Shown: positions 497 to 64,000 of the stretch, piece by piece
Layout of the letters: every line of letters starts with the position of its first letter
How positions within the stretch are numbered: the first letter of the stretch is position 1
NCBI GenBank assembly: GCA_964016885.1
Contig: OZ024742.1
Span: 358,360,001 to 358,424,000, forward strand
Reading direction: 5' to 3'
Length of the DNA stretch: 64,000 nt
From: Eledone cirrhosa
Taxonomy: Eukaryota
Position numbers and translations under genes: made by a program
The notes under the pieces: generated by a model
Database searches by the model: none
Seen by the model: only the letters and a program-made list of their open reading frames with translations
Told to the model about the DNA's origin: nothing

Positions 497-660
497 TAGG
501 GATTCTTTTATTTGTTTTTGTGCCTCTCCTTTGTTCTGTCCTACGCCATCTTGTTTTTGTTCTGTCACACGCCATCTTGTTTTTGTGTGTGTCACACACA
601 AAAACAAGATGGTGTAGGACAGAACAAAGGAGAGGCACAAAAACAAAGAAAAAATCCCCA

Positions 661-703
661 GTCACTGAAGAGGTCACAGAATGTGTGACGAAAGCATTTT
701 GAC
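661..703 (+). ncRNA. Minimal type-I hammerhead ribozyme motif (family A, right arm)
   Basis: gtca-CTGAAGA-g-gtcaca(gaatg)tgtgac-GAAA-gcat-TT-tgac. Confidence 0.7.
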
Positions 704-12738: not shown

Positions 12739-15545
12739 ATCATCATCATCATCATCATCATCATTTTACGTCCGCTTTTCCCTGCTTGCAAGGGTGGGAC
12801 GGGTCTTATTCAGCACAGCATCTCTCCACTCGTCACGGTCCCTCGTCATCTCCTAGGAGCATGCTTGCCTCATTTCTCTCCAGCCGTCGCATATCCTCTG
12901 CAGTTGCTGCCCATGTCTCACTACCATGCAGCATCGCGCTCCTCACACAGGCATCATACAACCGGCCTTTCGTACGCAGGGAGAAACCCTTCTTCGTCAA
13001 CAGAGGAAGCAACTCCCTAAGCTTCTTCCAACCCGTCCTTATTCTAGATACTATGGCCTCGGAACACCCTCCTCCCATGCTAATCTGATCTCCTAGGTAC
13101 CGGAAGCTATCCACCACTTCTATAGCGCCCTCCTGCATTTGAAAAATGTGTCTATCAATGCGACTTCTACTGTTTAATTTCCATGTACATCTACTGCATA
13201 CATATTTCTCCCTACCTGTTAGTTTGCCTGCTATCCCGCTACATCTCTTGTGAACCAAGGATCTGCATTGTGTGCATTTTATAGAATTCATGCCAGTTTC
13301 TTTTCTGCATATCGAACATGGCCATTTCCCTGAGGGAATCAGGGTTTTGTCCTCTTTTCTACTCATCAACACTTTTGTCTTAGCTAGCTTCACGCTCAGT
13401 CCTCTTGCTTCCAACTGCTGTTTCCATAGCCAGAATTTATTCTCCAGCTCCTCTACTGATTCTGCTATAAGAACCAGATTGTCAGCATAGAGAAGTTCCC
13501 ATGGACAGCCAGTCTTAAACTCCTCTGTTATGGCTTGGAGGACTATAATGAACAAGACCAGGCTGAGGACCGAACCCTGATGTACTCCTACTTGTATCTG
13601 GAATTCCTCACTAAACTCCATTCCTACCCTGACTTTACTGAGAGTACCTCTGTACAAAGTTTGCACTGTCCTCACAAGCCATTCCTCAACACCTAGCTTC
13701 CTTAGGGACCACCAGATGACAGATCGGGGTACCCTATCAAAGGCCTTCTCTAGGTCAACAAAGGCTAAGTATAGTGGCTTATTCTTCTTTAAGAACCTCT
13801 CTTGCAATTGCCTCACCAAGAAGAGGGCATCTGTTGTACTCTTCCCAGGCACAAAACCAAACTGCATCTCATCTAGTTTGACCCTTTCTCTAATTAGTTG
13901 TGCTAAAATCCTTTCTGCCACTTTCATAACCTGATCTATCAGTTTTATACCCCTATAATTGCTCCTCTCCAAAGCATCCCCTTTACCTTTGTAGCAATTC
14001 ATGAGAATACTGCTGCACCAGTCTTTGGGTATGACTGATTGATGATGCGTGCAACCAGTTTAGTGCTTACGTCCCCTGATGCCTTCAGCATCTCAGCAAC
14101 TATTCCCGATGGTCCGGCAGCCTTACCATTTTTCATTTCCCTAATCGCCTCTTGGACCCTATATTCGTCAATCTCAATAGCTGGTCCCTCTGTCGGATCT
14201 ACTGAGGGTAATTTCTCTCTCTCCCATTTGTTCTCCACATTCATCAGTCTCTCATAATGACATTTCCAGGCCTCCTTTTTCTGATCATTCGTGACACTAA
14301 GTACACCGGCATCATCCCGGACACATTTATCTCCAACAACGTCCTGATTTGCATTGACACACTGCCTTGCAATGTGGAACACCGCACGCCTCTGATCTTC
14401 CCGTCGCAGAATATTGGCAAACCTCCTACTCTCTGCCTCCCTGCGTGCTATGTACACCTGACGTCTAGCTTCTCTATTAGTGGCTGTATATTCTTCCCTA
14501 CTCCCACCCTTTTTCCAAGCCTTCCGAGCGAGTCTTTTGTCTCTAATAGCCTTATCTACTTTGCTGTTCCACCACCAGGTCACTCTCTGTCTGGTTGGAG
14601 CTCTGCTCCAGCCACAAGTTTTATCAGTAGCCTGCAGCAAGTTGTCACGTAAGAAATTCCAGTTATTATCTATGTCATACGTCTCTAAATCGTCTTCTTT
14701 TTCGTCATATACATCTTGAAGGGCTTTCCTAAATTTGTATTTTAGTGAAAGGTCTTTTAGCTTCCAGACCTTTCTTCTCCACACCTTCCTATATGTCTCA
14801 TTCCATCTCTTGCTTACTGAGATATCACTAACAACTAACCTATGATGTGGGGTACATTCTTCCCCAGGGTATGCCTTGGTATTAGACACTATCTGCCTGT
14901 CCCGCTGCCTAACTATTAAGAAGTCAATCTGGCTTATGTGCTCACCAGATTTGTAGGTTATTAGGTGATTGGCAGGTTTCTGAAAGTTTGTGTTGCAAAT
15001 AGTCAATGTACCTGCATCACAAAATTCAAGAAGTCTCACTCCTTCTTCATTTCTTGAACCGTAACCGTGCCCACCATGTACCCCAGTGTAACCACCCTGG
15101 AGCTGTCCAACATGACCATTGAAGTCTCCTGCTAGCATAACGATGTCTCCGTCCTCTGTCATTGCAGTTGTTTGTAAAAGTTGCTCATAAAAGCAGTCTT
15201 TCGCATCTTTGCCTAGGCCTGCTTGGGGAGCATAGGCCGAGATGATTGTCAGTAGTTTCCTACCTACAACTAATCTAAGCTTAATTATTCGATTACTTAC
15301 TCGAACTACCTCTATTGTCTTATTGATCCATTTCTCAGCCAGGAAAATGCCTACTCCCCCTAACCCATCATCCTTACCTACCCAGAATAGCTTATAGCTA
15401 AGACGTTTGCCTACGACTAGTCTCGCAGAGGCACCTCTCCATCTCACCTCTTGCACGCAGCACACATCCACCTGCCTTCTCTCCAGCATCTCCGCTATTT
15501 CAGCAGATCTATCTCTGAGAGTGCCAACATTAAGTGTTGCAACGT
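12739..15545 (-). mobile_element. RTE/BovB-like LINE (APE endonuclease + RT), frameshifted and 3'-internally deleted
   Basis: ORF 13999-15600 has ATLNVGT, VQEVRW, SAYAPQ, GDFNGHVG, QIDF; ORF 12833-14002 is RT with YADN in place of YADD; deletion near 12855 relative to 37590-38138. Confidence 0.93.
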
Positions 15546-16235
15546 CTTCATATTTTGTTGTTGTTCCTATTTGTTGCTGTGCTGATAAGCGTTTTGGCAT
15601 TGATACACTGGTTGGATGCCCTTCCTAACACCAGCGCCAATTTACAGCATGGACTGGGGGCTTTTATTTGTGCCACCAGCACTAGAGAGGATGTCTTACT
15701 AGACTCAAGGGCCCTCTCTACCCCTCCATTTTACAGCATGGTCATTAAAAAAAATAAATTAAAAAAATAAAAAAACTTATTGACACGACGTACACACACA
15801 CACTCACACACCAACACTCATGCATACAAACCACAACCACACACACGCCACTCACATACCAACACTCATTCATGCATACAAACACACACACCACTCACAA
15901 ACACACATACATATATATATATTACCGACAGTACTGATACAAATACAAAATCAAAATCAAAATCAAAATCAAAATCAATATCATGTCAACTGTTGACCTT
16001 TCCCAGTCCAGTTCAGCTTGTATATAATAATAATAATAATTGTTTGCTTTACGCTGGTAATGGCGGTGGTGGTGGTGAATGGTGGTGGATGGTGTCAGTG
16101 TGGTGATGATGGATGGTGTCAGTGTGGTGGTGGTGGATGGTCAGTGATGGTGGTGGCAGTTGTTGGTGCTGTAGTTGTTATTGCAGTTGCTGCTGCTGTC
16201 CCTGTCGCTGTTGTTGTTGTTGTTGTTGTTGTTGT

Positions 16236-18399: not shown

Positions 18400-18557
18400 T
18401 ACATGGAACTCCTTTAAACATCTTTTGATCTTATATATTATGTATACTCCAGTCCTACAAATTGTAGAGTGTTTCTTATCCGATATCTGCATTGCTTTAT
18501 TGTTTATTGTACTACAATAAAACTCACCCCCTATATATATAAATATATATATGTATA

Positions 18558-19530
18558 GGTGTCCACTATTTCTATAGAACCATCTGTGCAATGGAATGAG
18601 TTAGTATTCTGTGGGCACTTGCTGCTACTTATTGCAACTGAGCACCGGCCACATATAAAATCTATATTCTTAGTTAGCTTACCGGTGTTCCCACTACATC
18701 TTTTATGCACCAATACTTTGCATTTGGGACACAAAATGGAGTTTCTGCCTACTCCTTCCCTACACACTGAGAATGGCCATTTCCCAGATGGGACCAGTGC
18801 CCTATTTTCTTTCCTACAAACTAGAACTTTAGTCTTAGACAGGTTAATTTTAAGGCCTTTTGATTCTAGGCCATGCTTCAATGTTTGGAATTTCTTCTCT
18901 AGTTCAGCCATTGATTCAGCCATGAGCATTAGATCATCTGCGTATAGAAGTTCCCATGAGCAGCCTGTCTTGAACTCCTCTGTTATAGCCTGAAGGGCAA
19001 TAATAAATAGTAGGGGGCTAAGGACGGAGCCCTGATGAACACCAACTTTATGCTAACCTCTTTACTATATTCATTGTTAATTCTAACCTTGCTGACTGTT
19101 TCCTTATACATAGCTTGTATAGCTCTCACAAGCCATTCATTAACACCTAGATTTCTAAGGGCCCATCAGATAATCGAGCGGGGTACTCTGTCAAAGGCTT
19201 TCTCCAAGTCAACAAAAGCTAAGTATAGGGGTTTACTTTTAGCTAGGTACTTCTCCTGTAGTTGTCGTACGATGAAAAGTGCGTCCGTTGTACTTTTACC
19301 TGACACAAATCCGAACTGCATTTCGTCTAGATCAATTCGCTCTCTGATTAGTGGCGCTATTACTTTTTCTGTGACCTTCATGACCTGATCAATTAATTTA
19401 ATGCCTCTATAGTTTCCCCTATCTAGGGCATCTCCTTTACTCTTGTAGCAGTTAATGATGATGCTGCTGCGCCAGTATTTCGGAACGACCCCGTTCTGTA
19501 TGACTTGGTTTACTATCCGGACTCTCCGGG
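18558..19530 (-). mobile_element. Internal RT fragment of an RTE/BovB-like LINE, degenerate
   Basis: QFGF, FVDLEKAFDRV, SGKWP...C motifs across ORFs 19166-19381 and 18531-18929. Confidence 0.9.
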
Positions 19531-19594
19531 TGATATATATATAGAGAAAGAGAGAGAGATTACATGAAACAAAGTTCTGTTTAAATCATTTATC

Positions 19595-19641
19595 TGCTTA
19601 CAATTGTTTCTTCCAAACCGAGGTTTGGAGTCTTCGGAGCA
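19595..19641 (-). ncRNA. Minimal type-I hammerhead ribozyme motif, U4C variant (family E, left arm)
   Basis: Reverse complement: tgct-CCGAAGA-c-tccaaac(ctcg)gtttgga-a-GAAA-caattg-TA-agca; palindromic stem III ACAATTGT. Confidence 0.72.
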
Positions 19642-20970
19642 ATTATTCAGTGATTTTTAACATACTTGACCTCCTTTTCAACACAAGAGACATATAGAAA
19701 CATATGTATATATTGACCCACAGTGGGTTGACATCCATTACAATAATATAGCATGGTAATTTACATACAAAGATTACAGTCATATTAAAGGACAAAATTA
19801 AAATTAAAATAAAACATTGGCAGTCTACTAAGATAAAGCAAAAGGAAAGTTTGGAGTAGCCAGTGTATGCAACAGTCACACGTGTGGCATGCACGTGTGT
19901 CCTATTTATACAAGATTATAGTGCGGCAGATTGTTACAAGTAAAACAAGCAGTCAAAGCAGGCAATCAAGAGCATCATGGGGGTGAACTGGTTAAGCATT
20001 ATTTACACACACCTGTACGATATAGAAGCCCGTGTGTGGAGAAACACCAAAAATATCAAAAATATTACAAATGAGAAGCAAAACAGCACCACTGTCCTCG
20101 TACACACCACCACTCTCACAATCCAGGAAACGCAATTTATAGACTACATGCCCATCTCAATCCACGATGATTCAACCACTGGATGCCTGGTGAACCATGC
20201 TAGAACATCACAGCTTGTCGTTCTTTAATTCGATTCATAGATCAGGTTGTTTTTGTTGTGAGAGATGATATCGTATTATATTCCGGAAGTGTGTGTGTGT
20301 GATTAAGGGGAGTTAATGCGTAAGGGGAGGTAACTAGCTGATTTCTATAGTTAAATTTATTATCCTAAAGTACATTAATGGTGTCTCAAATGAGTTCTCA
20401 TCATATAAGTTTATAAACAATTTCTAAATTTAAGTATCTTATCTATAAATTACAGTGTAGTCTATCGAGAAGTACTAAAGGTGTTCATATTAGGATGAAT
20501 ACCTTTTATCATAGAGTGCCCCCACCGAACATTCCACATGAAGAGTCAGATCTCCAAATCAATGATCTTTGTAAGTGTAGTCCACCCGCAGGACCTGGCA
20601 GGGTCTTATTAGAATCACTTCTATATATGACTCCTGGTAAGTTCTGGGTCATTGCATGACTGATTGCATGGCAAAGTTAAATATCACTAGGGTAGTCCAG
20701 AGATCAATTCTCACTTACAAAGACACTGATCTGACCATCAAGTCATACATGTATTTATAACTCATACATCACCTGTACATAATTCATTGCACTCAGCATA
20801 TAGATTATATAGCTCTTTTATGTTAATAAATTAATTACTTAATCTTCCATTTATCCAATGATGGCACTACATACACAGAACAATGTTAGCACAACCAATT
20901 CCGTGCTTAAAGTTTACATTGGTGTAATGTAGTCTAAGCAATTGAAGGCCCATATACCAAAAGTAGAATA

Positions 20971-22375
20971 CACCGCGATGATGCACTTCTACTTATAGAT
21001 TATAAAAAATTCAATATAGAAAGAACTAGAAAACTATTGCACAAGACATTCAAAATCTATAACCTTAGTATTACCATGGACAAAAACACTAAAAACGTTA
21101 ACTTCCTGGACGCCACCCTCTACCTAGACTCAAAGATATATGCACCTTTCCACAAACCTAATGAAAAACTCATTTACGTAGATACCAAGTCTAACCACCC
21201 TAGATCTATATTAAACTCTATCTCTAAGGGAGTATCTAATAGAATCTCTAATCTATCCTATCACGTAAACATATTTAGCAAAAACTCGCAATATTATAAC
21301 CAGGCATTAGCTAGATCAGGCCATAATATAGAGATCGAGTTCCTACCTACAAAAGCACATAGCTACAACATTATTTCGCACAACATGTCCATGAGGAAAT
21401 TTAGTAATGGGAATAGCAACCACACACACACTAATACGGAAGATGCAAACAAAAATAAACCACACCACAGAAATTACCATAGTACCATAAAAGGAAACAA
21501 CTCACCAGACATAAAAAACAAAAATAGAAGAAGAAATAATACATTTTTAAACCCTCCTTTCAATCTAAACGTCTCTACCAACCTACCTAGGGCTTTCTTC
21601 ACACTACTAGATAAAAACTTCCCATCCGGCCATAAGTACCATAGCCTTTTAAACAAAAAACACTATTAAAATCTCCTACTCTACTACGCCTAACATAGCA
21701 TACCACATAGTTAGTAGCAATAAAAGAAAAATTAATTCTTACTTCCAGCAAACTAAATCACAACAGACGATAAACCTTCAAAATAACATTATAGCAACTA
21801 ACCCTAATATCAATAGAAATAATAGTAATAAGACTAGTGTAAACAATAACACTGGGAATGTCAACCCACATAACCATAACCCTATAGCTACCATCCAGAC
21901 TTCTACACAACATATTAACCTGCAGACTAACACCCAGAATAATTGTAACTGTAGATCAAATAGAACCTGCCCTTTAGATAAAAAATGCTTAACCAAGATA
22001 TCATATACTCATGCACAGTCACAACTAGCAACTCTTCTGAAACCTATATAGGCTCTACTTCAAACTGCTTCCAAACCAGATACAATTCGCACCACCACTC
22101 TTTCAAAAAACACAGTCTAGCCAACTCCACTTCTCTATCTAGCTACATACACTATCTAAAAACTAAAAATAAACCATATACACTTAAATGGTAAGTGATA
22201 GGTAACGCGTCATCGTACAAACTACCTAATACATTTTGTAACCTCTGTCTACTAGAGACCCATACTATCATCTTCTCAAACCATAACCTCCTTAATAAAA
22301 AATCAGAAGTGTTCGCGTCTTGCCAACACCGCTTGCGACACTCCTTCCAAAACTTTAAACCCAATATATAACAGT
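20971..22375 (+). pseudogene. PLE RT C-terminus/thumb, Asn-rich linker and GIY-YIG endonuclease
   Basis: HRDDAL at 20971, VNFLDATL, KPNEKLIYV...SNHP, NPPFN, CNCRSNRTCPLDKKC, IIY...YIG...RY.SH, CNLCLLE, SE..ASCQH; frameshifts and stops. Confidence 0.9.
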
Positions 22376-23846
22376 GTCAGACTTGAACCCGTCACCACCT
22401 CTAGCAGCAATCATCAGGGGCACACCTTACACCTTATCTCCACACCCATTAATCCTATTTAACGCAAATAGTGACATCCTCCTAGTACCTTTTTCCTTGG
22501 AGATATCCCCATGTACTTCTACTTTTGGTATATGGGCCTTCAATTGCTTAGACTACATTACACCAATGTAAACTTTAAGCACGGAATTGGTTGTGCTAAC
22601 ATTGTCCTGTGTATGTATGTAGTGCCATCATTGGATAAATGGAAGATTAAGTAATTAATTTATTAACATAAAAGAGCTATATAATCTATATGCTGAGTGC
22701 AATGAATTATGTACAGATGATGTATGAGTTATAAATACATGTATGACTTGATGGTCAGATCAGTGTCTTTGTAAGTGAGAATTGATCTCTGGACTACCCT
22801 AGTGATATTTAACTTTGCCATGCAATCAGTCATGCAATGACCCAGAACTTACCAGGAGTCATATATAGAAGTGATTCTAATAAGACCCTGCCAGGTCCTG
22901 CGGGTGGACTACACTTACAAAGATCATTGATTTGGAGATCTGACTCTTCATGTGGAATGTTCGGTGGGGGCACTCTATGATAAAAGGTATTCATCCTAAT
23001 ATGAACACCTTTAGTACTTCTCGATAGACTACACTGTAATTTATAGATAAGATACTTAAATTTAGAAATTGTTTATAACCTTATATGATGGGAACTCATT
23101 TGAGACACCATTAATGTACTTTAGGATAATAAATTTAACTATAGAAATCAGCTAGTTACCTCCCCTTACGCATTAACACCCCTTAATCACACACACACTT
23201 CCGGAATATAATACGATGTCATCTCTCACAACAAAAACAACCTGATCTATGAATCGAATTAAAGAACGACAAGCTGTGATGTTCTAGCATGGTTCACCAG
23301 GCACCCAATGTTGAATCATCGTGGATTGTGAGATGGGCATGTAGTCTATAAATTGCGTTTCCTGGATTGTGAGAGTGGTGGTGTGTACGAGGACAGTGGT
23401 GCTGTTTTGCTTCTCATTTGTAATATTTTTGATATTTTTGGTGTTTCTCCACACACGGGCTTCTATATCGTACAGGTGTGTGTAAATAATGCTTAACCAG
23501 TTCACCCCCATGCTGCTCTTAATTGCCTGCTTTGACTGCTTGTTTTAATTGTAACAATCTGCCGCACTATAATCTTGTATAAATAGGACACACGTGCATG
23601 CCACACGTGTGACTGTTGCATACACTGGCTACTCCAAACTTTCCTTTTGCTTTATCTTAGTAGACTGCCAATGTTTTATTTTAATTTTAATTTTGTCCTT
23701 TAATATGACTGTAATCTTTGTATGTAAATTACCATGCTATATTATTATAATGGATGTCAACCCACTGTGGGTCAATATATACATATGTTTCTATATGTCT
23801 CTTGTGTTGAAAAGGAGGTCAAGTATGTTAAAAATCACTGAATAAT

Positions 23847-23893
23847 TGCTCCGAAGACTCCAAACCTCGGTTTGGAAGAAACAATTGTAAACA
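23847..23893 (+). ncRNA. Minimal type-I hammerhead ribozyme motif (family E, right arm; stem I mutated)
   Basis: Same as the left arm but the 3' stem I strand reads aaca instead of agca. Confidence 0.62.
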
Positions 23894-24093
23894 GATAAAT
23901 GATTTAAACAGAACTTTGTTTCATGTAATCTCTATATAACTGCTCTGTAAAACAACTGATGTTGTTACATTGAGCTATTTATCTTACTGGTAATAAGATA
24001 GTAATAAATTACTGTCTTTCACTATTTAGGGTATAATATATATATAACTATAAAAGGTTTTAGTATATACATAACCATAAATAGTATCCTTAA

Positions 24094-27030: not shown

Positions 27031-27329
27031 TATCATGTCTGCTATCTATCCTAACACGTGTTAGATATGTTGTCCATGTCTATGACAGGTCAGTAAGTCC
27101 ATACGTCTCCTATTTCATGTCGTTTCTACAGCTAGATGCTCTACCTAACACCAACCACCTACAGAGTGCACACGATGCATCGACTTTCAACATTAGCACT
27201 GTTTTCTTACAGAGTGTACAGGATACATTTTATCAAGGTACCACACTGGATTGTGTGTTGTATTCTTCAACAAAACCCTTCATTTCACATTGCTCCCTTA
27301 TACTCAACTGAACATGAGTACCAGTAATA

Positions 27330-28598
27330 GCTGCGATGGACTGCTCTCCTGTCCAGGGGGGAGTCTTGTACTCTGTTGCTTAACACCATGGTTACCAGGA
27401 TAAGCAGCAAGCTGATGAGCCTCTGGGCTTGAGACAGACTTTAACCCTGTGATGGACTGCTGTCCTGTCCAGGGGGGAGTCTTGTACTCTGTTGCTTAAC
27501 ACCATGGTTACCAGGATAAGCAGCAAGCTGATGAGCCTCTGGGCTTGAGACAGACTTTAACCCTGTGATGGACTGCTGTCCTGTCCAGGAGGGAGTCTTG
27601 TACTCTGTTGCTTAACACCATGGTTACCAGGATAAGCAGAAAGCTGATGAGCCTCTGGGCTTGAGACAGACTTTAACCCTGTGATGGACTGGCGTCCTGT
27701 CCAGGGGGAGTCTTGTACTCTGTTGCTTAACACCATGGTTACCAGGATAAGCAGCAAGCTGATGAGCCTCTGGGCTTGAGACAGACTTTAACCCTGCGAT
27801 GGACTGCTGTCCTGTCCAGGGGGAGTCTTGTACTCTGTTGCTTAACACCATTGTTACCAGGATAAGCAGCAAGCTGATGAGCCTCTGGGCTTGAGACAGA
27901 CTTTAACCCTATGATGGACTGCTGTCCTGTCCGGGAGGGAGTCTTGTACTCTGTTGCTTAACACCATGTTTACCAGGATAAGCAGCAAGCTGATGAGCCT
28001 CTAGGCTTGAGACAGACTTTAACCCTGTGATGGACTGCTGTCCTGTCCAGGAGGGAGTCTTGTACTCTGTTGCTTAACACCATGGTTACCAGGATAAGCA
28101 GCAAGCTGATGAGCCTCTAGGCTTGAGACAGACTTTAACCCTGTGATGGACTGCTGTCCTGTCCAGGGGGAAGTCTTGTACTCTGTTGCTTAACACCATG
28201 GATACCAGGATAAGCAGCAAGCTGATGAGCCTCTAGGCTTGAGACAGACTTTAACCCTGTGATGGACCGCTGTCCTGTCCAGGGGGAAGTCTTGTACTCT
28301 GTTGCTTAACCCTTTAACATTTACATTACTCGATACATACTATTGTATTTTCGTGGTAAACACTTCATCTGGCATAATTATCTCACACAATATCGAATCT
28401 ATGAGACTTTGATATCTATTTTGAGAACAATACCTTAATATAAGTATGAGCAGCTGATTATGGCCAGCTTGAACAGAAAGAGGTGATAGCATCCTGGCCA
28501 GGTATGGCCAGTTTAAATGCTAAAGGTTTAACACCATGGAAACCAGGATAAGCAATAGCTTGCTGAGCCTCCAGGCTCGATGCAGACTTTAGACTTTT
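27330..28598 (+). repeat. Tandem array of nine 115-116-bp units resembling a SINE 3' domain; ninth unit split by a MITE
   Basis: gatggac at 27335, 27451, 27567, 27683, 27798, 27913, 28029, 28145 and 28261. Confidence 0.93.
28310..28527. mobile_element. piggyBac-like MITE (~220 bp) with TTAA target duplication
   Basis: Ends ccctttaacattta / taaatgctaaaggt; TTAA at 28306 and 28528; the other array units have a single TTAA at this site. Confidence 0.85.
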
Positions 28599-37445: not shown

Positions 37446-38156
37446 ACCCTTCAGTATTTAAACTGGCTGCATCTGACCAGAATTCTCTCCTCTTTTCATC
37501 AAAATCTCATAGATTCAAGATTATGTGAGATGAAGCCTTTATCACGAATATACAATAGTAAATATAGAGTATTCATCATCCTCATCATCATCATTTTACG
37601 TCCACTCTTCCCTGCTTGCAAGGGTGGGACGGGTCTTATTCAGCACAGCATCTCTCCACTTGTCACGGTCCTTCGTCATGTCTACCATGAACTTCAGCGA
37701 TCTGAGGTCTGCTATCACCACCTCCGCCTATGTTTTTCGTGGCACTTCTTTACCCAGCGGTCATCCTCCGTGCGCATCACATGTCCATACCACCTCAGTC
37801 TCCACTCCCGTACACTACATTCTATCCCTCTCAGACACAGTTTCTCTCTCAACACATTCATGCTGGGTCGTTCATGCACATTTACACTGCACATCCAACG
37901 GAGCATGCTTGCCTCATTTCTCTCCAGCTGTCGCATATCCTCTGCAGTTGCTGCCCATGTCTCACTACCATGCAACATCGCGCTCCTCACACAGGCATCA
38001 TATAACCGGCCTTTCGTACGCAGGGAGAAACACTTCTTCGTCAGCAGAAGAAGCAGCTCCCTAAGCTTCTTCCAACCCGTCCTTATTCTAGATACTATGG
38101 CCTCGGAACACCCACCTCCCATGCTAATCTGATCTCCTATTGTAAACGCTAAAGGG
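37446..38156. mobile_element. piggyBac-like MITE interrupted by an RTE 3' fragment (37574-38138, minus strand)
   Basis: MITE left part 37446-37573, right end gtaaacgctaaaggg-ttaa after the RTE piece; ORF 37715-38122 is an RTE C-terminus. Confidence 0.8.
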
Positions 38157-38525
38157 TTAAAGTGTTAATTTCTCGACTTGTTATCATCAAACATCCTCAC
38201 TAGAAACTTATATTAAATTCTTTGCTAAATATTCCCTATTAGGTCTGTCACCACTACACACACTCTGACTCCACTCCACTCATGTGTGGTGTTAAGTAAT
38301 AATTTACATTAACCATTAATTAATTTCATGCACCCATTAACTAAATCTCATCTTGCTTTGTTTAAACAAAAACGTTTCATTCGACCACCCCTAATTCTTC
38401 TCCTATAACAGCACGGCAGGAATTTTGTGTCTAAAACTAATATTTGTATTATAAACAATATCACATTACTGAAGATTGGATCTTTGTATTTGCTTATACC
38501 CTATTCCTGGCAATAACATCTATTA

Positions 38526-40399: not shown

Positions 40400-40760
40400 G
40401 TCCATCACAGGGTTAAACTCTCAGTTACTATTCGTACTCATTTTCAGCTGAGTATACAGGTACAATGTGAAATGAAGTGTTTTGTTGAAGAACACAACAC
40501 ACAGCCCTGTCCAGGACTCGAACTTACAACATTATGATCATAAGTCCAACACCCTCACCACTAGGCCACTCTAGAATCCTCCCTGGACAGGATGCCATTA
40601 AATCCCCAGCTATTGCTGCTACTCATTTTCAGCACAGTATACTGGAGCAATGTGAATTGAAGTGTTTTGCTCAAGAAAACTATACACAACCCAGTCCAGG
40701 AATCAAATTTACGATGTTATGATCGTAAGTCCATCACACTTACCACTAAGCCATCAACTT
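40400..40760 (-). mobile_element. Two tandem degenerate tRNA-derived SINEs
   Basis: tactcattttcagc...gaagtgttttg...ccagga-box-B complement occurs twice; related to 53953-54172. Confidence 0.6.
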
Positions 40761-40797
40761 CCACTTCTAAATATCGCAAATATGAAATCTAGAGTTC

Positions 40798-41215
40798 TGT
40801 AGCGGTTGTCTCCCTTGTTTTGATTGGGATCTAGACGGGAGGTAGAACCCTTTCTGCAACTTCCGGTCAGAGCCCTATAAAACTAACAACTTTAAGCTTT
40901 CTAACTCTCATTGCCTTTTCGGCACCAGGTCAAGAGCCTCTCATTGGGCTCTGCCATTCATTTGGCCAACAGGCGCCTGGCCTTAGCCAGGCGTCCTCTG
41001 CCAGCCACCATTGCCTGGCAATCAAAACGGTAACTACTAACTTTGCTTCATTCTAACATCATCCTCATCTTTGACATGTCAACTATACTATCTACCATTG
41101 TTAATTAAATATTATACACACAACTATGTATTCCTTGTTACATTCATACAACCCAGTAATCTCGCTATATTGGTAACCCTGACGTGATACGAACACGCAG
41201 CCGTTCATCGCTATA
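40798..41215 (+). mobile_element. LTR-like element (40798-41169) + extended tRNA-Trp primer-binding site + short second end
   Basis: Starts tgtagcg, ends cgctata (inverted ends), internal TATAAAA and ATTAAA; TGG... PBS at 41171; gttc flanks both sides (40794-40797, 41216-41219). Confidence 0.65.
41171..41202 (-). other. 3' 32 nt of mature tRNA-Trp including CCA (PBS-type copy)
   Basis: Reverse complement ggctgcgtgttcgtatcacgtcagggttacca versus the metazoan tRNA-Trp 3' end as I recall it, GGCTGCGTGTTCGAATCACGTCGGGGTCA-CCA (3 mismatches). Confidence 0.8.
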
Positions 41216-43514
41216 GTTCTATCTACTAACTCAGTTATTACATTAGATATTTGCTGGTTTCAGCTGTTAGCTGCAGCAATTCTGGGACACTATCTTTAAG
41301 TCTTATTGACCTATCATATTTCTGATTAGTCTCATTTATTGAAGAGCTATGTTATCATATTTAAAATAAGGGGTTGAAAGTCAACACATTAGTTTACCCA
41401 AACCTGTAAACATACACATACACACACTGGGAGGGAACTCATACACAAAGGAATTAGAATACAAACCCTCAATTTTACATATTAAAGTCAGCTTGGCAGA
41501 AGTAATTAGAATTGAAAAGATATACATACATGTAATAAATTTCAAAAATGTAGCCATCCTCTTTTTATATCCACCTTCCCCACAGGCATTGCCTTTCCAC
41601 ATCAAATCTGGCCCTCATGAATACATACCCTCTTTCACAACATTGTCTAAAATGATGCCAAAATTTAGTTCAACTCCTTGTATAAACTTATTCTTTTTTA
41701 CTTCTTAACATTTGAACATCTCCAGAGTGAATTTCAATCTTGATATTGTGAGATAATCTCAGTTGATTGTATCTTTCTTTTCTTTCCCTCACCACATTTA
41801 TAATGCAGGAGTTTACTTGGGGGTATATATGTTATGCTGAGCATTCCCTCATGCTTTTTGGTCACTAATCTTTATTGACAAACACAGTCACTGTGTACTT
41901 TCTTTTCCTAATCTTTTATACATTCATACATACATGGTGGCTGCAAACTCTGCCAAGAGTTTGGGAATTGCTTGTCAGATTACAGAAAATGGTGCACCTT
42001 TAGGCTACACCCAACCACACGAACCTATAACATAACCTGAACAAGCAAAGCCTGTGCTTTGAAGGTTTTTTAAGTGGGGAAAGGATTTGCACTCGACTAA
42101 TCCCACTCTCTGAGCATCGAAAACACTACCTGAAAAGGAGAACTGGTCAACATCATCGGATGTTTCCGAAGCTGCAGGTTTTTTATCAGGATTTCGCTCT
42201 CCTAGAAAGGTGTTGTGACAACAACTGAGGGCCTTTCACTACAAGGTGAAAAGAAAAAAAATTCTATTTGGATGGCCGCTGACTCTGCTGAGTTTCTCTG
42301 CCCCGTACTGGGTCTTGTATTTCATCCCGCAGGGTGTCCAAATATCACCCTCCTCACCAAGAAAGCTTGGTGGGGTTGCTGGTTTAGTTGCAGATGAACC
42401 GACCACGACACAGGTTGTACTGGGTTACATGTTACCAGTAGTACTCAAGAGTAACCAGACATACATACATACATACATGCATGCATATTTGTTGTAGAAT
42501 GGTTAGCATTAAGAAACACTTCCAACCATAGAAACCATGCCATAACAGGAACATATGAGCAAGGCATGTTTCTCCAGCCCATCTAGTCTCAGACTGTGAT
42601 GATCAATCTGACCATATATGAGATCGATGGGTCACTTCTCAAACTATTTCAATTTATCCACCAATAACGTGCTTTGTTATCGTGATGGGATTTGACTATA
42701 TTCCTCTTTAGAAGGTCACATGGAACTACTAGCATCACGGTAGTGAGGATAACTTTAATCTTTGCTGGTATCTTGGAAAAATTCCCTCTCTAAAATTTAA
42801 GGCTGAACTCTGCTGAACAATAACCCCAATAAACCTGACTACGCGGACTTTCTTCAACTTTTCGGAAACAACCTGTGGTTTCTATGTGCAATGTTTTGCT
42901 AATGTATCAAGTGTGCATAGGACATGGTGGATGAAACTGTAGAGTTTGGAATATACATTGTGTTCCCTCACTAACCCACTTATCCTATATATAACGAATT
43001 GTGTACAATTTGATATGCAGATTTGTATTTACAACAAACGATTTTTGTAAATTCATTGAGTTGGATAGAAGCGATCCTAGATGAAATCTGTCTGGCTTGT
43101 TATAATTAATGTACATACCCATGCTAGTGTGAAAGATGGACGTTAAACGCCAACGATGATGATGATATATATATATATATCTGTGTGTATATATATTTAT
43201 GATATATGTATATATATATCATATATATGTATATGTATATCATTATCATGATATATGTGTTTATATATTATGTTGGTACTACAAAACGTCCAGCCCACAC
43301 TAAATGATGGGTGTGTAAAAATAACGGCAAAAAGCACGCAGCACACACTGTAAATGTGGTTGGCGTTAGGAAGGGCATCCAGCCATAGAAAACCAGCTAG
43401 AAACAGTCCTATATGAGCGAGACATGGGCACTTGACCCAACTTTCCTCTAAATGGGACAAACGAATCTAACCCATGCTAATGTGGAAGATAGTCGTTAAT
43501 CGATGATGATGATG

Positions 43515-43602: not shown

Positions 43603-46600
43603 TAGCAGAGGTACCCGGCGTTGCCTGGTATAACTCTCAATGGAGTAGTCGTTCAAATGAACCGAGAGACTTCCGTTAAACACGACTATAGAAGTAACAA
43701 TTTATAGGTGTTGGCCCTAAAGAGGGCCTTTGAATGTTCACTTCGAAATATCTCTGCGGTGGTGCTGCCAGCAAAGACGAATCCGATGGTAACAGTTTAA
43801 AGTTGGCGGCCCTGAAGAGTGCCTTGGATCGTTCACTCTTAAAAGTCTCAGCGGCGGTGCTGCCAGCAAAGAGGAATCCAGCGGCGATATAATTTATAGT
43901 TGGTGGCCCTGCAGAGGAGCTTTTAACGTTCACTTTGAAATATCTCAGCGGCGGTGCTGCCAGCAAAGATGAATCCGATGGTAACAATTTAAACTTGGTG
44001 GCCTTGAAGAGGGCCTTGGATCGTTCACTCTTAAAAGTCCCAGCGGCAGGGAAAAGTTGATTAATTAGGTTAAAACTACGGAACATCGATAGCAAAGTGT
44101 AATAGCAACATATAAATGCGGAAAACGGAGACATTGAACATTTATAACGTATATCAAAAGCAACCTCAGAGGCGTACGTCGTATTGTCAAAGGGACAAAA
44201 ATAGCACAGATACAGCAAATGTAAGCACTTATACAACAACAAAAAAAACACCGATTACTTGTTGGCGGATGGGGTGCCTACAAGGCTTCCTTATAGACTA
44301 TATTTTGGGTTTTCTCGCGAGTTGCAAAAGCAAATAGGTTATGTCGGCTCCCCACTCGAGAGCAGCCAACATATAGTTGACCATGGGAGAAGCACAGTTC
44401 TTCTAAATTAAGCCCTACGACCGTCAGCGTCTGACCTTGTGATTTGTTAATCGACATGGCGAAACTGAGCTGGAGAGGGAATTGCAGCCTTCTGAATGTG
44501 AAAGGAATGTCTTTACCGGATGGAACGAGATGTCTCCTTGGTATGAAGACAGTATCCCCCTTACCACATCCTGTAAGTATTGTTGCCTCAATAACATGAA
44601 GCATCGCCTTTTGGACGACCAGATGCGTGCCGTTGGTTCCAAATTCCTGAGGAGCATGACAGGGGTACCTTTCTTAAGTCGCAGTAAGTGTGGTGGTAAT
44701 CCGGGAGGGTCTAGGGAGCTAAGAAATTCTGTGGGGTAATTAACAACTTCGTCCGGATCAGCCATAGAGTCAAGGGACTTGTAGACGTGCAGGTTTCCCG
44801 ACAATCACATCATGAGCTGTTCATGATGTTTCCAACTATATGGTTTTTCGAAGTCAATATTGCGCGTTCACACAACCACTCTTGATTTGTGTAGTTCTCC
44901 TCAAGATTAGGAAAAACAGACGTCCGTAACTCAGCAATTGACTTAACACATCTGCAAATCCCTTTGAGGTCCGCTGCTCCATCTCCGTCGAGTGGGACTT
45001 TGCCATCTCCCAACGACAAAATAGCAGCAGCAAAACCCGTTGATGTCTTATCACCTTGCAGTTGTACTATCATGTTTGTTTTAAGCGTCAGCTTTCTTAC
45101 ATAACGCCAAAGTGGGGAGGCCTTAAGGCATGCACCAACCTCATCAGCCCGCGTACCTTTTGGGATTACAGGCAGTCTGTCGGAAGTCCCCAGATAACGG
45201 GAAAGTGACACCTCCCATTGGTTCTTGACAGTTCCTGTGGGCCATTGTGCATTCGTCCCAAACAATTAGTAGGCAGCGCTTTAACACCAGTGCTTTTCCG
45301 GAAGACTTGCTGATGTTGGACGTGGGTGTGTCAGATGATGCCACGTTGAGAGGAAGACTGGAGGCAGAATGAACTGTCCTGCCACCAGGCAGCAAAGTTG
45401 CTGCAATGCCGGAAGAAGCCACGGCCAATGCGATATTTCCGTGTTGCCTCACTGCAGCGAGTAAAAGTTTGAATACAAATGTTTTGCCCGTGCCTCCAGG
45501 TGCGTCCAGGAAGAATATACTCCCTCCCGATTACGGATGGAATCAACGACAATGTTGTAGGCTTGTTTTTGATCCATTAGAAGTTTTGGTTCATTTTCTT
45601 CAACATACCAATTGAGTTCGACATCATATGACGTTTCACGTATAATGTCGTTGGGAATGTCAGATGACGCATCTCCAAGTATTTGCGGAAGCCCATATTT
45701 CTCCAAGACATCTCCGCCCATTGAAGCCACTGTCTTCAATATCGATCAGAGCTCTGTTATATATAGCGTCTGAAAAGCCGACATCTAAGTTTGGAGATTG
45801 CAATTGAGCGAGACGCCTATATTAGTCTGCGAAATCATCTTTAAACTTTTGCCATAAAGAGTAAGGATCGCTCAAGTCACAGACGTGCAAGAGGATTGCA
45901 AAAGGTGCCCTTAGACTACAGGATGATTGTGAGATGGCAGCTTCTGTCAAGGTTGCATCCCATTGTGCGTCATCTTCTAAGTAACCACGCCTCAAGCAGG
46001 CTTCCCTGTACGTTCCGCAGGCGTATCCATCGACGGTTCTCAGATGAGTGAAGCTAGTCGGCTCTCTTACCTCATGAAGCAGAAGTCGCAGGTAGAAGCA
46101 TTCGTGTTGGGTAGGGTGGACCGTATAAACTCGCTCATGGCAATTGTCGAATTTGATGCCTGGATGTCCCACCACCTCTTGCCCTACCTTCCTTCGTAGC
46201 CATTTTGTCCGGTTCCATGTATAGTAAGACGGTATTTCAGAATACAGCAGAGTTCGAGCGAAGTCGTCGTGTTGACAAAGTTGGAAAAAAGCGGTGTGTG
46301 TAGTTTCCTTTGGTGAGATCGATAGCAGAGCAGCTGTTGCATCGTTGAAATACACCCGTTAACCGTTTTCAGGGTGAACGGCAAGTTGTTTAATGACGGG
46401 ATGTCGTTGGTGCAGTGGGAAGCCTAAAATGCGCCAAAAGGCTTCATTGCTGCTAATGTATCGGCCTGCTTGGTAGTCAGATACCTTGTCTCTACAGTTT
46501 TCATGACGAAGACCAAAGATAGCAGCATCCGATCCCTTGTTTACGTACTTACAAACGTATTTAATTGATTTTACTGAGTTGCAAAATTCGACGTTTATAT

Positions 46601-48560
46601 TGGCGTTGAACGCTTTCAAAAGGAGGGGGCATAACGGCACTATCCAGCTGTTGTCGATTTCGCGTTGCCAACTTTTGCTGTGAACCCACCGTCTTCTGGT
46701 CTCCTGCGCCTATACAACGGATATCCGCCACCACCAGTCTGTGTTTCCTGTAAAAACGGCCTGGTATATCGTTTTGTACACTTTCCGTCGTGTATGCACG
46801 GGGACTTCATATTGAGTCCATGTCCGCAAGGACCATAGACCATGTTTGATGTGACTATAGAGAAGAGGTCCTTGTCAATCGACGGATCAGGTAGTTCGGC
46901 AGAAATGAATTTGTCGATGTAGTTTGAACTGATTTTTGTAACCAACCAAATCAAGATATGGACATGCGGCAGCCCTCGTTTCTGCCATTCAACCGTGTAC
47001 ATGTCGCACATGACAGGCCCCAAAACCTGTCCTTTCTTTAATAAATCCATTAATTTGGATAATTTCAGACGAAATGGCCAGGGGTCGCCATTTCGCACTT
47101 AATTGAGGTGCAATTAAACGGGGGAGACAACAGGGTGCAAAAACTAATAAATCCTTCGCACAGTTTAGGCACGAGTGTGAAATAGCACAATCCACATACA
47201 GTAGGCTTTAAAATTTACACCTGGGTTAAATCGCGCTTTCTTGGTTAGGAGTGTGAAATGACGCCAAAGTTCAAGAAAAAAAATGTAACTCCCCATTCCG
47301 CACTTTATTGTGGTGCAATTACACGTGGGAGACAACCGGGTGCAAAATTCAATTCAATCATCCTAAAGTTAACTAAACAAACTAAAGTTAAGTCAGGGGG
47401 ATCTAAAAATTCGATACTCCATTTGTAGGACATGAGTAACCGATGCGTCAACTTTCGTTTAAATTGACTTTTATTTCCAGAAGTTGAAATGCTTTGCTGC
47501 AACAATAATATGAACTTTAAAGTGGTCCAAAGGGGCTTACTGCTCCCCCTTGCAAATTTCAAGTGATAACGAATGTGTGGTGCTTTATCTTATGGCAGGC
47601 AATAACCATTTCATTTAGGTTTTGTAAGAATCAAGTATAAACTCCCGAGGTTATGGTGCTTTTTTATTGTGGCAGTTTGAACTTTTATAGGTTAAGGAAT
47701 TGGGCTCATTGTCCCCGAGAGGTCCTCTTGCTGAATTGAAATGAAAGTAAATGTGTCTCACTGTATCTTCATCTGTAGTACATGAATAACAACTAAGTCG
47801 AAATTCATTTTATTGGACTACCAATTATCGAAGCTATGACGCTTTGCTGCATTACAATAGCCAAATTCAATAAATGACTCGCCGGGGCTTATTGCCCCCT
47901 GGGGGTACGCTTCCTTGTTCCGGGTATAGGCAGTGTCTTCAACATCATCTTTAGGCAATGGGTAACCAATGTGTCCGGTAAAGTTAAAATCGAACGTAAA
48001 CTTCAAAAGTTATCAGGTACTATTACAGTGTTAATGTGAACTTCAATAGATATGTCGAAGGGGATTACACCCCTTCCCCTCGGGTGGTCCCCTTGATAAG
48101 TTCAAGTAAAAGTTCATGTGTTCACCTTCCTTTATAACCAATATGTCTCGCTTCGTGAAAACCAAACACCAACTCAAGCAGTTATGACGTTTTGTTGCAT
48201 TGATGATATCAACTTCAACATTCATCAAGTAGGTTTACTGCCCCCTAAGGGGTCCCCTAACTGAATTTCTGCGCAAGTGCATGCCTGCAAATTTATTTGT
48301 AGGCCATAAGCAAACAAAAGATTAATTTTGGTGAAGATGGGATGCAAATTGCAGGAAGTATGGGGCCTTTATGCAGTAGTACTGCTGATTCCAAGTGAGA
48401 GGCTTAAGGAGGTTATCTGATCCTGGGGAGCCCCACAAATGAAAACTAAAATAGCCTAAAACGCGTAATAGGACTTCTGAAAACCATGTATGAAATTTGG
48501 TGCAAATCGGTTGTAAAAGGTAGAAATGCGTGCGGTTACACAGGCAAATAGACAGGCATC

Positions 48561-54172: not shown

Positions 54173-54334
54173 AAGGGTGACAGTAAGCATCTTTAATATA
54201 TTGAATGTTTATATATATATATTAAATGTATATATATATATTAAATTCCAGATTCCTTTAATAAAACTCTAAGGTTTCATAAAATACACATATATAATAG
54301 ACTTTCGAAATTCCTGAGTGGCCGAAATGGGATT

Positions 54335-54960
54335 CAGAGAATCACTCCAAGTAGAGCTGCTAATTCTCTGAATTGAGAGATCACAGTTTCGATACTATAG
54401 GCATGTGGTTAGAATATCTCTGGAAAGAATCACTGGACAGATTTGTAGCTCTGAGATCAGAGAATCACTCCAGGCAGAGCTGCTAATTCTCTGAACTGAG
54501 AGATCACAACTCCGATACTATAGGCATGTGGTTAGAATATCTCTGGAAAGAATCACTGGACAGATTTGTAGCTCTGAGATCAGAGAATCACTCCAGGCAG
54601 AGCTGCTAATTCTCTGAACTGAGAGATCACAACTCCGATACTATTGACATGTGGTTAGAATATCTCTGGAAAGAATCACTGGACAGATTTGTAGCTCTGA
54701 GATCAGAGAATCACTCCAGGCAGAGCTGCTAATTCTCTGAACTGAGAGATCACAACTCCGATACTATTGACATGTGGTTAGAATATCTCTGGAAAGAATC
54801 GCTGGACAGATTTTACTGGTAAAACCAACTGGCAAGAGATCCAAGGGTAGACCTAGAGCAAGATGGTTAGAGAACATCCATGAGCTTGGCTGATCTCATT
54901 TGGGATCCAGCCAGATCAGTTGACTCTCTCAGGAATAAGTAGGTGAAGAAGAAGAAGAAT
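54335..54960 (+). repeat. Four 123-bp tandem units within an RTE-like 3' fragment ending in (GAA)n
   Basis: cagagaatcactcca at 54335, 54458, 54581 and 54704; encodes GHVVRIS-like residues followed by GRPR.RW. Confidence 0.88.
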
Positions 54961-62391: not shown

Positions 62392-62625
62392 TTAATACTA
62401 CTTGAAAGGGAAATAAACTCCAGGCTAAAGAGTCTCTAGTCTCAAGAAAGACTAAACCTTTAAACTTGTGTCTGAATATATTTCATTCTATTTTTCCTTG
62501 TTTCTTTAAATCATTCCTCTTCTATTACATCTATTATTTCTTTGTCTTCTTTGTGTTGTAATTTATATCTTTTAATGAATTAATCTTTTACAAAGTGAAC
62601 AATAATTAATTCACAGGGATTTATC

Positions 62626-64000
62626 TTAACCATTCAGTTATCAACATGTCCAAAACTGGCGTTGGTTCTATGAAATAAAACTATTTATCACTTTAGTTAT
62701 CAACATGTCCAAAACTGGCTTTGGTTCTATGAAATAAAACTGTTTTATCCCTTTCAGTTACCAACATGTCCAAAACTGGCTTTGGTTCTATGAAATAAAA
62801 ATGTTATCTCTTTAGTTATCAACATATCCAAAACTGGCTTTGGTTCAATGTAATAAAACTGTTTTATCCCTTTAGTTACCAACATGTCCAAAACTGGCTT
62901 TGGTTCTATGAAATAAAACTGTTTTATCCCTTTCAGTTACCAACATGTCCAAAACTGGCTTTGGTTCTATGAAATAAAACTGTTTTATCCATTTCAGTTA
63001 CCAACATGTCTAAAACTAGCTTTGGTTCTATGTAATAAAACAGTTTTATCCCTTTAGTTACCAACATGTCCAAAAGTGGCTTGGTTCTATGAAATAAAAC
63101 TGTTTTATCCCTTTAGTTACCAACATGTCCAAAACTGGGTCTCGTTCTATGAAATAAAACTGTTTATCCCTTTAGTTACCAAACCAGCTAAAAAAAGCTC
63201 TGGTTCTATGAAATAAAACTGTTTTAGCCCTTTAGATATCAACACGGACAAAACCAGCTGTGATTCTATGAAATAAAACTGTTGCATCCGTTTACTTATC
63301 AACCCGGCCAAAACTGGCTTTGGTTTTATGAAATATAACTATTTTATCACTTTAGCTACCAACATGTCTAAAACTGGCTTTGGTTCTATGAAATAAAACT
63401 GTTTTATCCCTTTAGTTACCAACATGTCCAAAACTTGTTCTGGTTCTATGAAATAAAACTGTTTTATCCCTTTAGTTACCAACATGTCCAAAACTTGTTC
63501 TGGTTCTATGAAATAAAACTATTTTATCCCATTAGTTACCAAACCAGCTAAGAAAAGCTATGGTTCTATGAAATAAAACTGTTTAGTTATCAATCCGGCC
63601 AAAACCGGCTCTGATTCTATGAAATAAATCTGTTTCATCCCTTTATTTATCAACCCGGCCAAAACTGGCTTTGTTTCTATGATATAAAACTGTTGTATCC
63701 CTTTAGTTACCAACATGTCCAAAACTGACTTTGGTTCTATGAAATAAAACTGTTGTATCCCTTTAGTATCAACATGTCCAAAACTGGCTCTGGTTCTATG
63801 AAATAAAACTGTTTTATTCCTTTCAGTTACCAACATGTTCAAAACTGGCTATGGTTCTATGTAATAAAACTGTTTTATCCCTTTCAGTTGCCAACAGGCC
63901 CAAAACTGGCTCTGGTTCTATGGAATAACTGTTTTATCCCTTTAGTTATCAACATGTCCAAAACTGGCTCTGGTTCTATGTAATAAAATTGTTGTATCCC
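62626..64000 (+). repeat. ~60-bp minisatellite (about 23 units, runs off the window)
   Basis: Consensus ccctttagttaccaacatgtccaaaactggctttggttctatgaaataaaactgttttat. Confidence 0.95.

Follow-up and report, generated by a model that had tools for sequence, protein, structure and literature searches.

How does a piece of a retroelement's own tRNA primer come to lie between two ends of the same LTR? This question is raised by positions 40794-41219 of the window, by which we mean the whole 64,000-nt stretch of Eledone cirrhosa DNA that we analysed. There, an LTR is followed by a copy of part of tRNA-Trp and then by a short repeat of the LTR end, and the same four letters stand on either side of the whole. 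Copying of the primer binding site (PBS) is considered to end at the modified tRNA base m1A58, and the tRNA copy at this locus runs past it. The initial annotation of this DNA saw here a genomic fossil of m1A58 read-through, integrated as an aberrant or miniature LTR element.

Structure of the Unit

The unit and its borders comprise the following features, in order along the window.

40598-40753, minus strand: very high-copy tRNA-like SINE remains, outside the element (depth in run X1 up to 620,671)
40794-40797, plus strand: left target site duplication (TSD), GTTC, the same 4 letters as at 41216-41219
40798-41169, plus strand: core LTR, 372 bp, TGT...ATA, multi-copy by the depth of reads and contigs placed on the window
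40876-40881, plus strand: TATA-like box, a putative U3 promoter predicted by motif scan
41104-41109, plus strand: ATTAAA, a possible poly(A) signal predicted by motif scan
41170, plus strand: 1-base spacer (T) between LTR end and PBS
41171-41188, plus strand: PBS for tRNA-Trp, 16/18 matching (41175 and 41180 differ)
41189, plus strand: A facing tRNA A58, where T is expected by comparison with tRNA-Trp genes; candidate m1A58 misincorporation
41190-41202, plus strand: read-through copy of the tRNA-Trp T-arm and variable loop (positions 57-45, counted back), 13/13 matching
41203-41215, plus strand: 5-nt linker and 8-nt LTR-end repeat, the outer integrase end
41216-41219, plus strand: right TSD, GTTC; depth single-copy or zero from 41220 in runs X1, X4 and X8
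41220-41369, no strand assigned: single-copy flank, within the stretch (41162-41459) that one X1 contig spans

The core LTR starts with TGTAGCG at 40798 and finishes with TCGCTATA at 41169, exactly where the initial annotation had placed an LTR-like unit of ~370 bp. Placed from ATTAAA, the original U5 would occupy roughly 41125-41169. The letters at 41208-41215 are those of 41162-41169, and the 13-nt end that carries this 8-nt repeat also finishes with TCGCTATA. These 13 nt had been described as mimicking the LTR end; only the last 8 of them repeat it. Taken alone, the 8-nt match is modest, its score being reached by 63 of 5000 shuffles (20 nt downstream) and by 626 of 5000 (100 nt). From 40798 to 41215 the long form measures 418 bp, of which 46 bp extend beyond the core LTR.

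GTTC does flank the unit at 40794-40797 and 41216-41219, as first described, but it occurs once more at 41203-41206, immediately after the tRNA copy. The right boundary is therefore not fixed by sequence alone, and was taken from depth, which favours 41215 (see below). The upstream sequence checked has no purine tract ahead of 40798, as expected for a solo LTR, and there is none within 41203-41207. Inside the 64-kb window we found no second LTR copy and no second tRNA piece. RNA folding of 41120-41215 was unremarkable (z -0.08).

Surroundings in the Window

Microsatellites, LINE-type RT frames and SINE remains are abundant in the window. Decayed SINE pieces lie just upstream of the LTR (40511-40753), with a weak Rfam tRNA match at 40511-40568. 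The six window ORFs that were scanned contained no LTR-element protein; a LINE-type RT and a weak helix-turn-helix (HTH) match were found, the latter in a broken frame at 1099-1578 that we take to be mariner-like. Broken frames at 44278-47098 are presumably helitron-like.

A LINE with an RT and a PHD finger is present in several copies, 70-97% alike (3689-6190, 12833-15624, 18531-19585 and 37715-38164). At 19555-23933, long inverted repeats with arms of 605, 123 and 585 nt, 98-99% complementary, surround a 243-aa frame that gave no match in Pfam and that we assume to be Penelope-like. Tandem arrays occupy 27219-28591, 54334-54813 and 62573-64000, with units of about 116, 123 and 60 nt.

The tRNA-Trp Copy and Its Mismatches

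Our reference for tRNA-Trp consisted of genes from metagenome contigs (L003, L005), not the host's own. They were collected from the metagenome contigs with a 22-nt pattern, base 19 left open; together with one viral locus, this gave at least 125 matches in 122 loci. Base 19 was T in 124 of the 125 pattern matches listed. Among the matches listed, 98 are complete eukaryote-type tRNA-Trp genes; all 98 have A58 and none (0/98) encodes CCA. A T at position 58 of tRNA-Trp genes, which the initial annotation had named as evidence against its reading, was thus found in none of them.

Against mature tRNA-Trp including CCA, 41171-41202 is complementary at 29 of 32 positions. The length and place of this match were as first described; its quality had been put at 31/32, with the mismatches at 41175 and 41180 overlooked. 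The third mismatch, the A at 41189 where T would pair with A58, is present as reported. The letter at 41180 is found in 5 of the 98 tRNA-Trp genes listed and that at 41175 in none (0/98). On both strands of the window, the 32-mer is the sole match at 29/32 or better (runner-up 21/32), and for the 13 nt matching beyond base 19, p at window composition is about 2.5e-9. Because CCA is present here and is encoded by 0 of the 98 listed genes, the segment was copied from mature tRNA. The data support the view that 41171-41202 is reverse-transcribed mature tRNA-Trp at the exact PBS position of the LTR, and we are highly confident that it derives from overshoot of the reverse transcriptase on its primer, whatever the route. 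ARAGORN called 0 tRNA genes, and Rfam gave no match at 41171-41202. In our preferred reading, the tRNA piece is a passenger, neither promoter nor gene.

As a control, we scanned viral contigs for 18-nt Trp PBSs and obtained 17 loci (L123-L139), many of them related and so not independent. In all 17 the match ends at 18 nt. Base 19 behind them is A in 9, C in 8 and T in none. These ordinary PBSs thus halt at 18 nt with A or C at 19, which makes the 13 further matches in the window unusual, and the A at 19 not. That base 19 of these 17 Trp PBSs is never T may itself be a one-base m1A58 footprint. Where m1A is followed by A, RT signatures are reported to contain little C, so that, read as RNA, T or G remains (PMC4787781), which is consistent with A in the cDNA.

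The A at 41189 therefore fits the m1A58 misincorporation first proposed for it, but does not prove it, since A stands behind 9 of 17 ordinary PBSs, the window copy is aged, and T is found in 3 of the 4 other read-throughs described below. The two mismatches within the PBS fit a decayed passenger site. Equally, PBS mismatches are described as common among active ERVs (PMC7472051), so those at 41175 and 41180 are no proof of decay.

Copy Number and Right Boundary

Four of the 10 listed sequencing runs (X1, X4, X5 and X8) were placed on 40560-41459 at 80% likeness. X8 consists of raw reads; the figures for X1 and X4 are summed contig depth, which is no copy number. In X1, the LTR bins between 40800 and 41189 have depths of 9,148-38,443, the bin at 41190-41219 has 10,544, and the flank at 41220-41369 has 7.5, so that the last bin of the unit stands at about 1,400x the flank. 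The corresponding series in X4 is 853, 845, then 921 in bin 41190-41219, then 0; in the raw reads of X8 it is 363, 164, 59, then 0. An end at 41202 predicts a last-bin depth of 6,887 in X1 and 370 in X4, and an end at 41215 predicts 13,775 and 739. Since the measured depths lie above the first prediction and near the second, an end at 41215 is favoured, and depth collapses after that position. In X5, from another organism, 40798-41089 is covered and depth is zero from 41100, which argues against tRNA genes filling bin 41190-41219, although filtering can also make such holes.

Both the extension and the 13-nt end occur in many copies, by order of magnitude in the hundreds to few thousand. Absence of homologs of 40798-41169 had been named at the outset as a second observation that would speak against the LTR, and depth shows many homologous copies. 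The fossil of m1A58 read-through proposed there is borne out in its substance, a mature-tRNA copy with CCA that continues 13 nt past A58, but not as a single fossil; the mechanism was right in its core and wrong in its scale.

Individual contigs add detail at the edges. One X5 contig begins matching at exactly 40798, after 29 foreign letters. One X1 contig departs at 41169 into SINE sequence, which indicates that short-form ends exist too. Another X1 contig covers 41162-41459 and differs at 1 letter; the junction therefore exists in X1 and is not an assembly error. The X1 contig holding the locus is low-depth from about 41160; the window copy thus differs from the high-depth paths over the extension, and this fits heterogeneity. 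Estimates of the long-form share disagree, at about 0.19 in the X8 raw reads, 0.77 in X1 and 1.25 in X4 by contig depth. None of the 14 joints listed runs from 41215 back to 40798, a weak result because repeat contigs are short.

Letter differences were taken from the best 40 of 221 variant rows. The ten rows computed reach 68-100% in some run, and none of the 40 is a single letter in 41163-41215. At least 9 of the 372 LTR positions (about 9 among these best 40 of 221) differ from at least 80% of X1 depth, and these near-private changes indicate that the window copy is aged. At 41159, the other letter, T, is common (58% of X1 depth, 90% of X4). With T at this position, 11 of 12 letters agree between the inner and the outer end, and by eye the inner end then has a TTCT that is also the next four bases complementary to the tRNA, a short microhomology.

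Read-Through in Other Contigs

In four other contigs, LTR-like sequence is followed by CCA and a long copy of tRNA-Trp.

L039, 225-265: 37 nt, T at 19; LTR-like end in AAA
L075, about 560-685, minus strand: LTR end, tRNA-Trp PBS, 35-nt read-through, A at 19
L165 (G001 contig C523): 39 nt, T at 19
L171/L172 (G002 contig C45): 33 nt, T at 19; purine tract, about 900 bp to CCACA, primer copy

L075 has the same layout as the window: its LTR end recurs about 40 nt beyond the tRNA copy, a match reached by 2 of 5000 shuffles. No such repeat was found in L039, L165 or L171. The LTR bodies of L039 and L075 have no homology to the window LTR, with scores within those of shuffles. The sequence behind the tRNA copy of L039 resembles what we take to be an insect SINE. 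L165 and L171/L172 are eukaryote-type retroelement sequence inside bacterial MAGs, probably contaminant contigs, and a second full copy of either LTR was not found in their genomes. The 39-nt copy of L165 halts one base short of G37, which in tRNA is a methylated position. Overshoot on tRNA-Trp is thus recurrent, with A at 19 in 2 of 5 cases when the window is counted with the four contigs.

Other matches were set aside. In viral contigs, the 22-nt pattern gave 1 match, a phage tRNA-Met; a pattern with a base other than T at 19 gave 17 chance matches, the inner-end pattern 1 chance match and the outer-end pattern 0 matches. In genome contigs, 13 of 15 matches were not Trp read-throughs, and 9 were called as bacterial tRNA-Arg or -Lys genes. 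Separately, L068:601-622 is a 3' piece of tRNA-Trp that lacks CCA and ends at the very base where the window copy ends.

Origin of the Unit

We give about even odds to 40798-41215 being a long-form solo LTR, 418 bp in length, from a CsRn1-like Ty3/Gypsy family primed by tRNA-Trp, in which U5 has gained 46 bp and the gain has been amplified. The LTR core, the PBS, the primer copy past A58, the repeated LTR end, the 4-bp TSD and the many copies are all there to be seen. The lengthening of U5 would have come about by read-through, a slip back and amplification, as follows.

In one ancestor, plus-strand strong-stop synthesis would ignore m1A58, insert an A opposite it and copy at least 13 more tRNA bases. 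Unable to pair at the PBS, this overshoot could slip its 3' end back onto the minus-strand U5 end, so that the U5 end would be copied again and then a fresh PBS. TTCT is a possible jump point; the linker as observed would then require two single-base insertions. When the downstream PBS was used for priming in the following cycle, both LTRs would receive the lengthened U5, and the upstream PBS would turn passenger and decay. The long form would then amplify, and LTR-LTR recombination would leave solo copies with a 4-bp TSD.

The layout of L075 counts in favour of this history, as an unrelated contig with A at 19 and a second LTR-end copy. Against it stand the two single-base insertions required by the linker, and L039, L165 and L171, which have no repeated LTR end. 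Among the reads and contigs placed, we found no full-length element in which a PBS comes after a 418-bp LTR, no paired long-form LTRs and no internal sequence. Two other derivations of the linker were not taken up: if the tRNA copy went on to G37 with a gap, one insertion and a 2-nt deletion are required, and a skip to the D loop gains only 3 further matching letters.

The strongest rival is that each copy is an independent accident, a recurrent dead-end product that mimics a solo LTR with no recombination involved. RT would often pass m1A58, the plus strand would re-copy the U5 end only, and integrase would take the LTR, the primer copy and the re-copied att end, in hundreds of independent insertions. 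A looped intermediate with two integrase ends would give the 4-bp TSD, and repair would drop the internal part. The unrelated contigs, with tRNA-Trp read-throughs of 33, 35, 37 and 39 nt and T or A at 19, speak for this. So do the signs of varied extensions, namely a private locus contig and no single letter of 41163-41215 among the best 40 of 221 differences, and X8 hints at a minority long form (0.19). On the other hand, hundreds of copies would require a very high accident rate, and X4 depth does not drop over the extension (853, 845, 921), which fits a uniform end. In HIV-1, moreover, read-through beyond position 54 is reported to be non-integrating (PMC8599865). We regard this explanation as rather unlikely, though worth keeping beside the long-form solo LTR.

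The initial annotation had also offered a miniature LTR element. Such a non-autonomous unit, TRIM- or SMART-like, would consist of the LTR and PBS with the tRNA piece and the vestige of a second LTR, and would replicate as one. The unit is indeed multi-copy and TSD-bounded, with an LTR-end motif at its end. Its self-replication is unlikely, however, because it has neither a polypurine tract nor a second R region, so that U3 would not be rebuilt by standard strand transfer; the PBS has two mismatches, and no joint among the 14 listed returns from 41215 to 40798 (again weak, given short repeat contigs), although such a return is what tandem arrays or a brief internal stretch should produce. We consider this origin improbable.

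It is very doubtful, too, that 41202 is the end of the insertion; the right end of the LTR would then bear the copy of a primer that was not removed, with a TSD at 41203-41206 and the TCGCTATA that follows belonging to host DNA. GTTC does directly follow the tRNA copy, L171/L172 (purine tract, LTR of about 900 bp, 33-nt primer copy) has the layout of an unremoved primer, and PMC12220202 cites circles with tRNA at their LTR junctions. The X1 and X4 depths in bin 41190-41219 nevertheless exceed the prediction for this end, and an 8-nt LTR-end match followed by GTTC would have to be coincidence, when the 8-mer by itself is equalled in 63 of 5000 shuffles.

Lastly, a tRNA retrocopy or SINE head that a LINE placed next to the LTR, or else the remnant of a tRNA gene, is suggested by a window rich in LINEs and tRNA-like SINEs and by the fact that any RT could misread m1A58, yet it has very little chance of being right, given a CCA end one base off the LTR end in PBS orientation, the absence of the 5' half and A box, the negative ARAGORN and Rfam searches, the lack of a separate TSD or tail, and the same junction in four unrelated contigs.

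Implications

An overshoot of 14 nt has here been integrated and, by depth, has spread to hundreds of copies or more. If the unit is a long-form solo LTR, an LTR can push its boundary outward when it takes in its own primer, and every LTR of the family would hold a target for 3'-tRNA fragments. If the copies are instead dead-end products, recombination is overestimated by solo-LTR counts for this LTR family, and RT errors made in vivo at a modified base are preserved in the copies. Independent insertions would then be another way for apparent solo LTRs to arise, and also a germ-line read-out of the base placed at m1A58 and of the stall site. For annotation, such LTRs resemble LTR+PBS truncations or tRNA pseudogenes.

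Comparison with Known Systems

In the description given in PMC2582038, CsRn1-like elements have TGT...AAA or TGT...ATA ends, a tRNA-Trp PBS and a 4-bp TSD. The window unit shares the tRNA-Trp PBS, the 4-bp TSD and TGT...ATA with the members of this clade (CsRn1, PwRn1, AgCR and Kabuki), and its 372-bp core is close in size to the 381-bp LTR given for PwRn1. It has TGT at 40798 and ATA at both 41169 and 41215, as the CsRn1 end criterion asks. By eye, each end matches the integrase motifs TGTGGYG and MSYYAMA of Table 3 in PMC3601003 at 6 of 7 letters. The clade is reported from 9 of 12 cephalopods (PMC6238403). The unit appears to work like a CsRn1-clade element, known here from the traits of its LTR since the window has no coding part; a Gag CHCC motif and RT/RH/IN phylogeny are further marks by which the clade is recognised. 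It differs in having a PBS and primer copy inside the LTR boundary, a feature that goes unmentioned in the parts of these sources that describe the clade. In the openly licensed literature that we searched, no LTR family is described that carries its own PBS together with the primer overshoot in U5, within the LTR boundary.

Helenus, Ajax and Cassandra (TRIMp3) are alike in having tRNA-derived sequence in the LTR, with the animal elements showing a 4-bp TSD and many solo LTRs (PMC10886601). As described there, Helenus keeps A and B boxes, is presumed to stem from a SINE insertion, and has a tRNA part unrelated to its PBS. The window piece is instead the primer's own 3' half with CCA, its B box altered at A58, and a search of the minus strand at 41150-41300 with an A-box consensus gave no match. 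Helenus/TRIMp3 was rejected as a classification since the tRNA part of the window is the PBS and its continuation, with the A box absent; TRIM/SMART since the second end is 8-13 bp and there is no polypurine tract; and a tRNA gene or tRNA-derived SINE head since CCA is present, ARAGORN found 0 and Rfam none there. In the strong-stop-DNA model for the origin of SINEs, reportedly due to Ohshima and Okada, a tRNA is said to be joined via CCA to antisense U5, and the whole tRNA with its promoter is required; in the window, 32 nt of the tRNA were copied.

tRNA copied at the LTR junctions of retroviral DNA has been reported (Colicelli and Goff 1986, as cited in PMC12220202). Those junctions, as cited, likewise place mature tRNA with CCA beside an LTR end, in single molecules from the laboratory or cell culture and not in a germ-line family. 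For mammalian ERVs, short read-through with a mismatch at A58 has been published before. The Harlequin PBS is reported to match 22 nt with A facing A58 (PMC2359750), and the mismatch in ETn/MusD is ascribed by its authors to m1A58 misincorporation (bioRxiv 10.1101/2025.05.12.650695). Complementarity past base 18 is thus common to the window unit, to mammalian ERVs (Harlequin, HERVK9 and ETn/MusD) and to lentiviruses (PMC2359750, bioRxiv 10.1101/2025.05.12.650695, PMC8599865). In the ERVs and lentiviruses, as these sources describe them, the extension is 3-4 nt long and lies in the internal region, whereas in the window it is 14 nt long, is followed by a second LTR end and lies inside a TSD-bounded unit.
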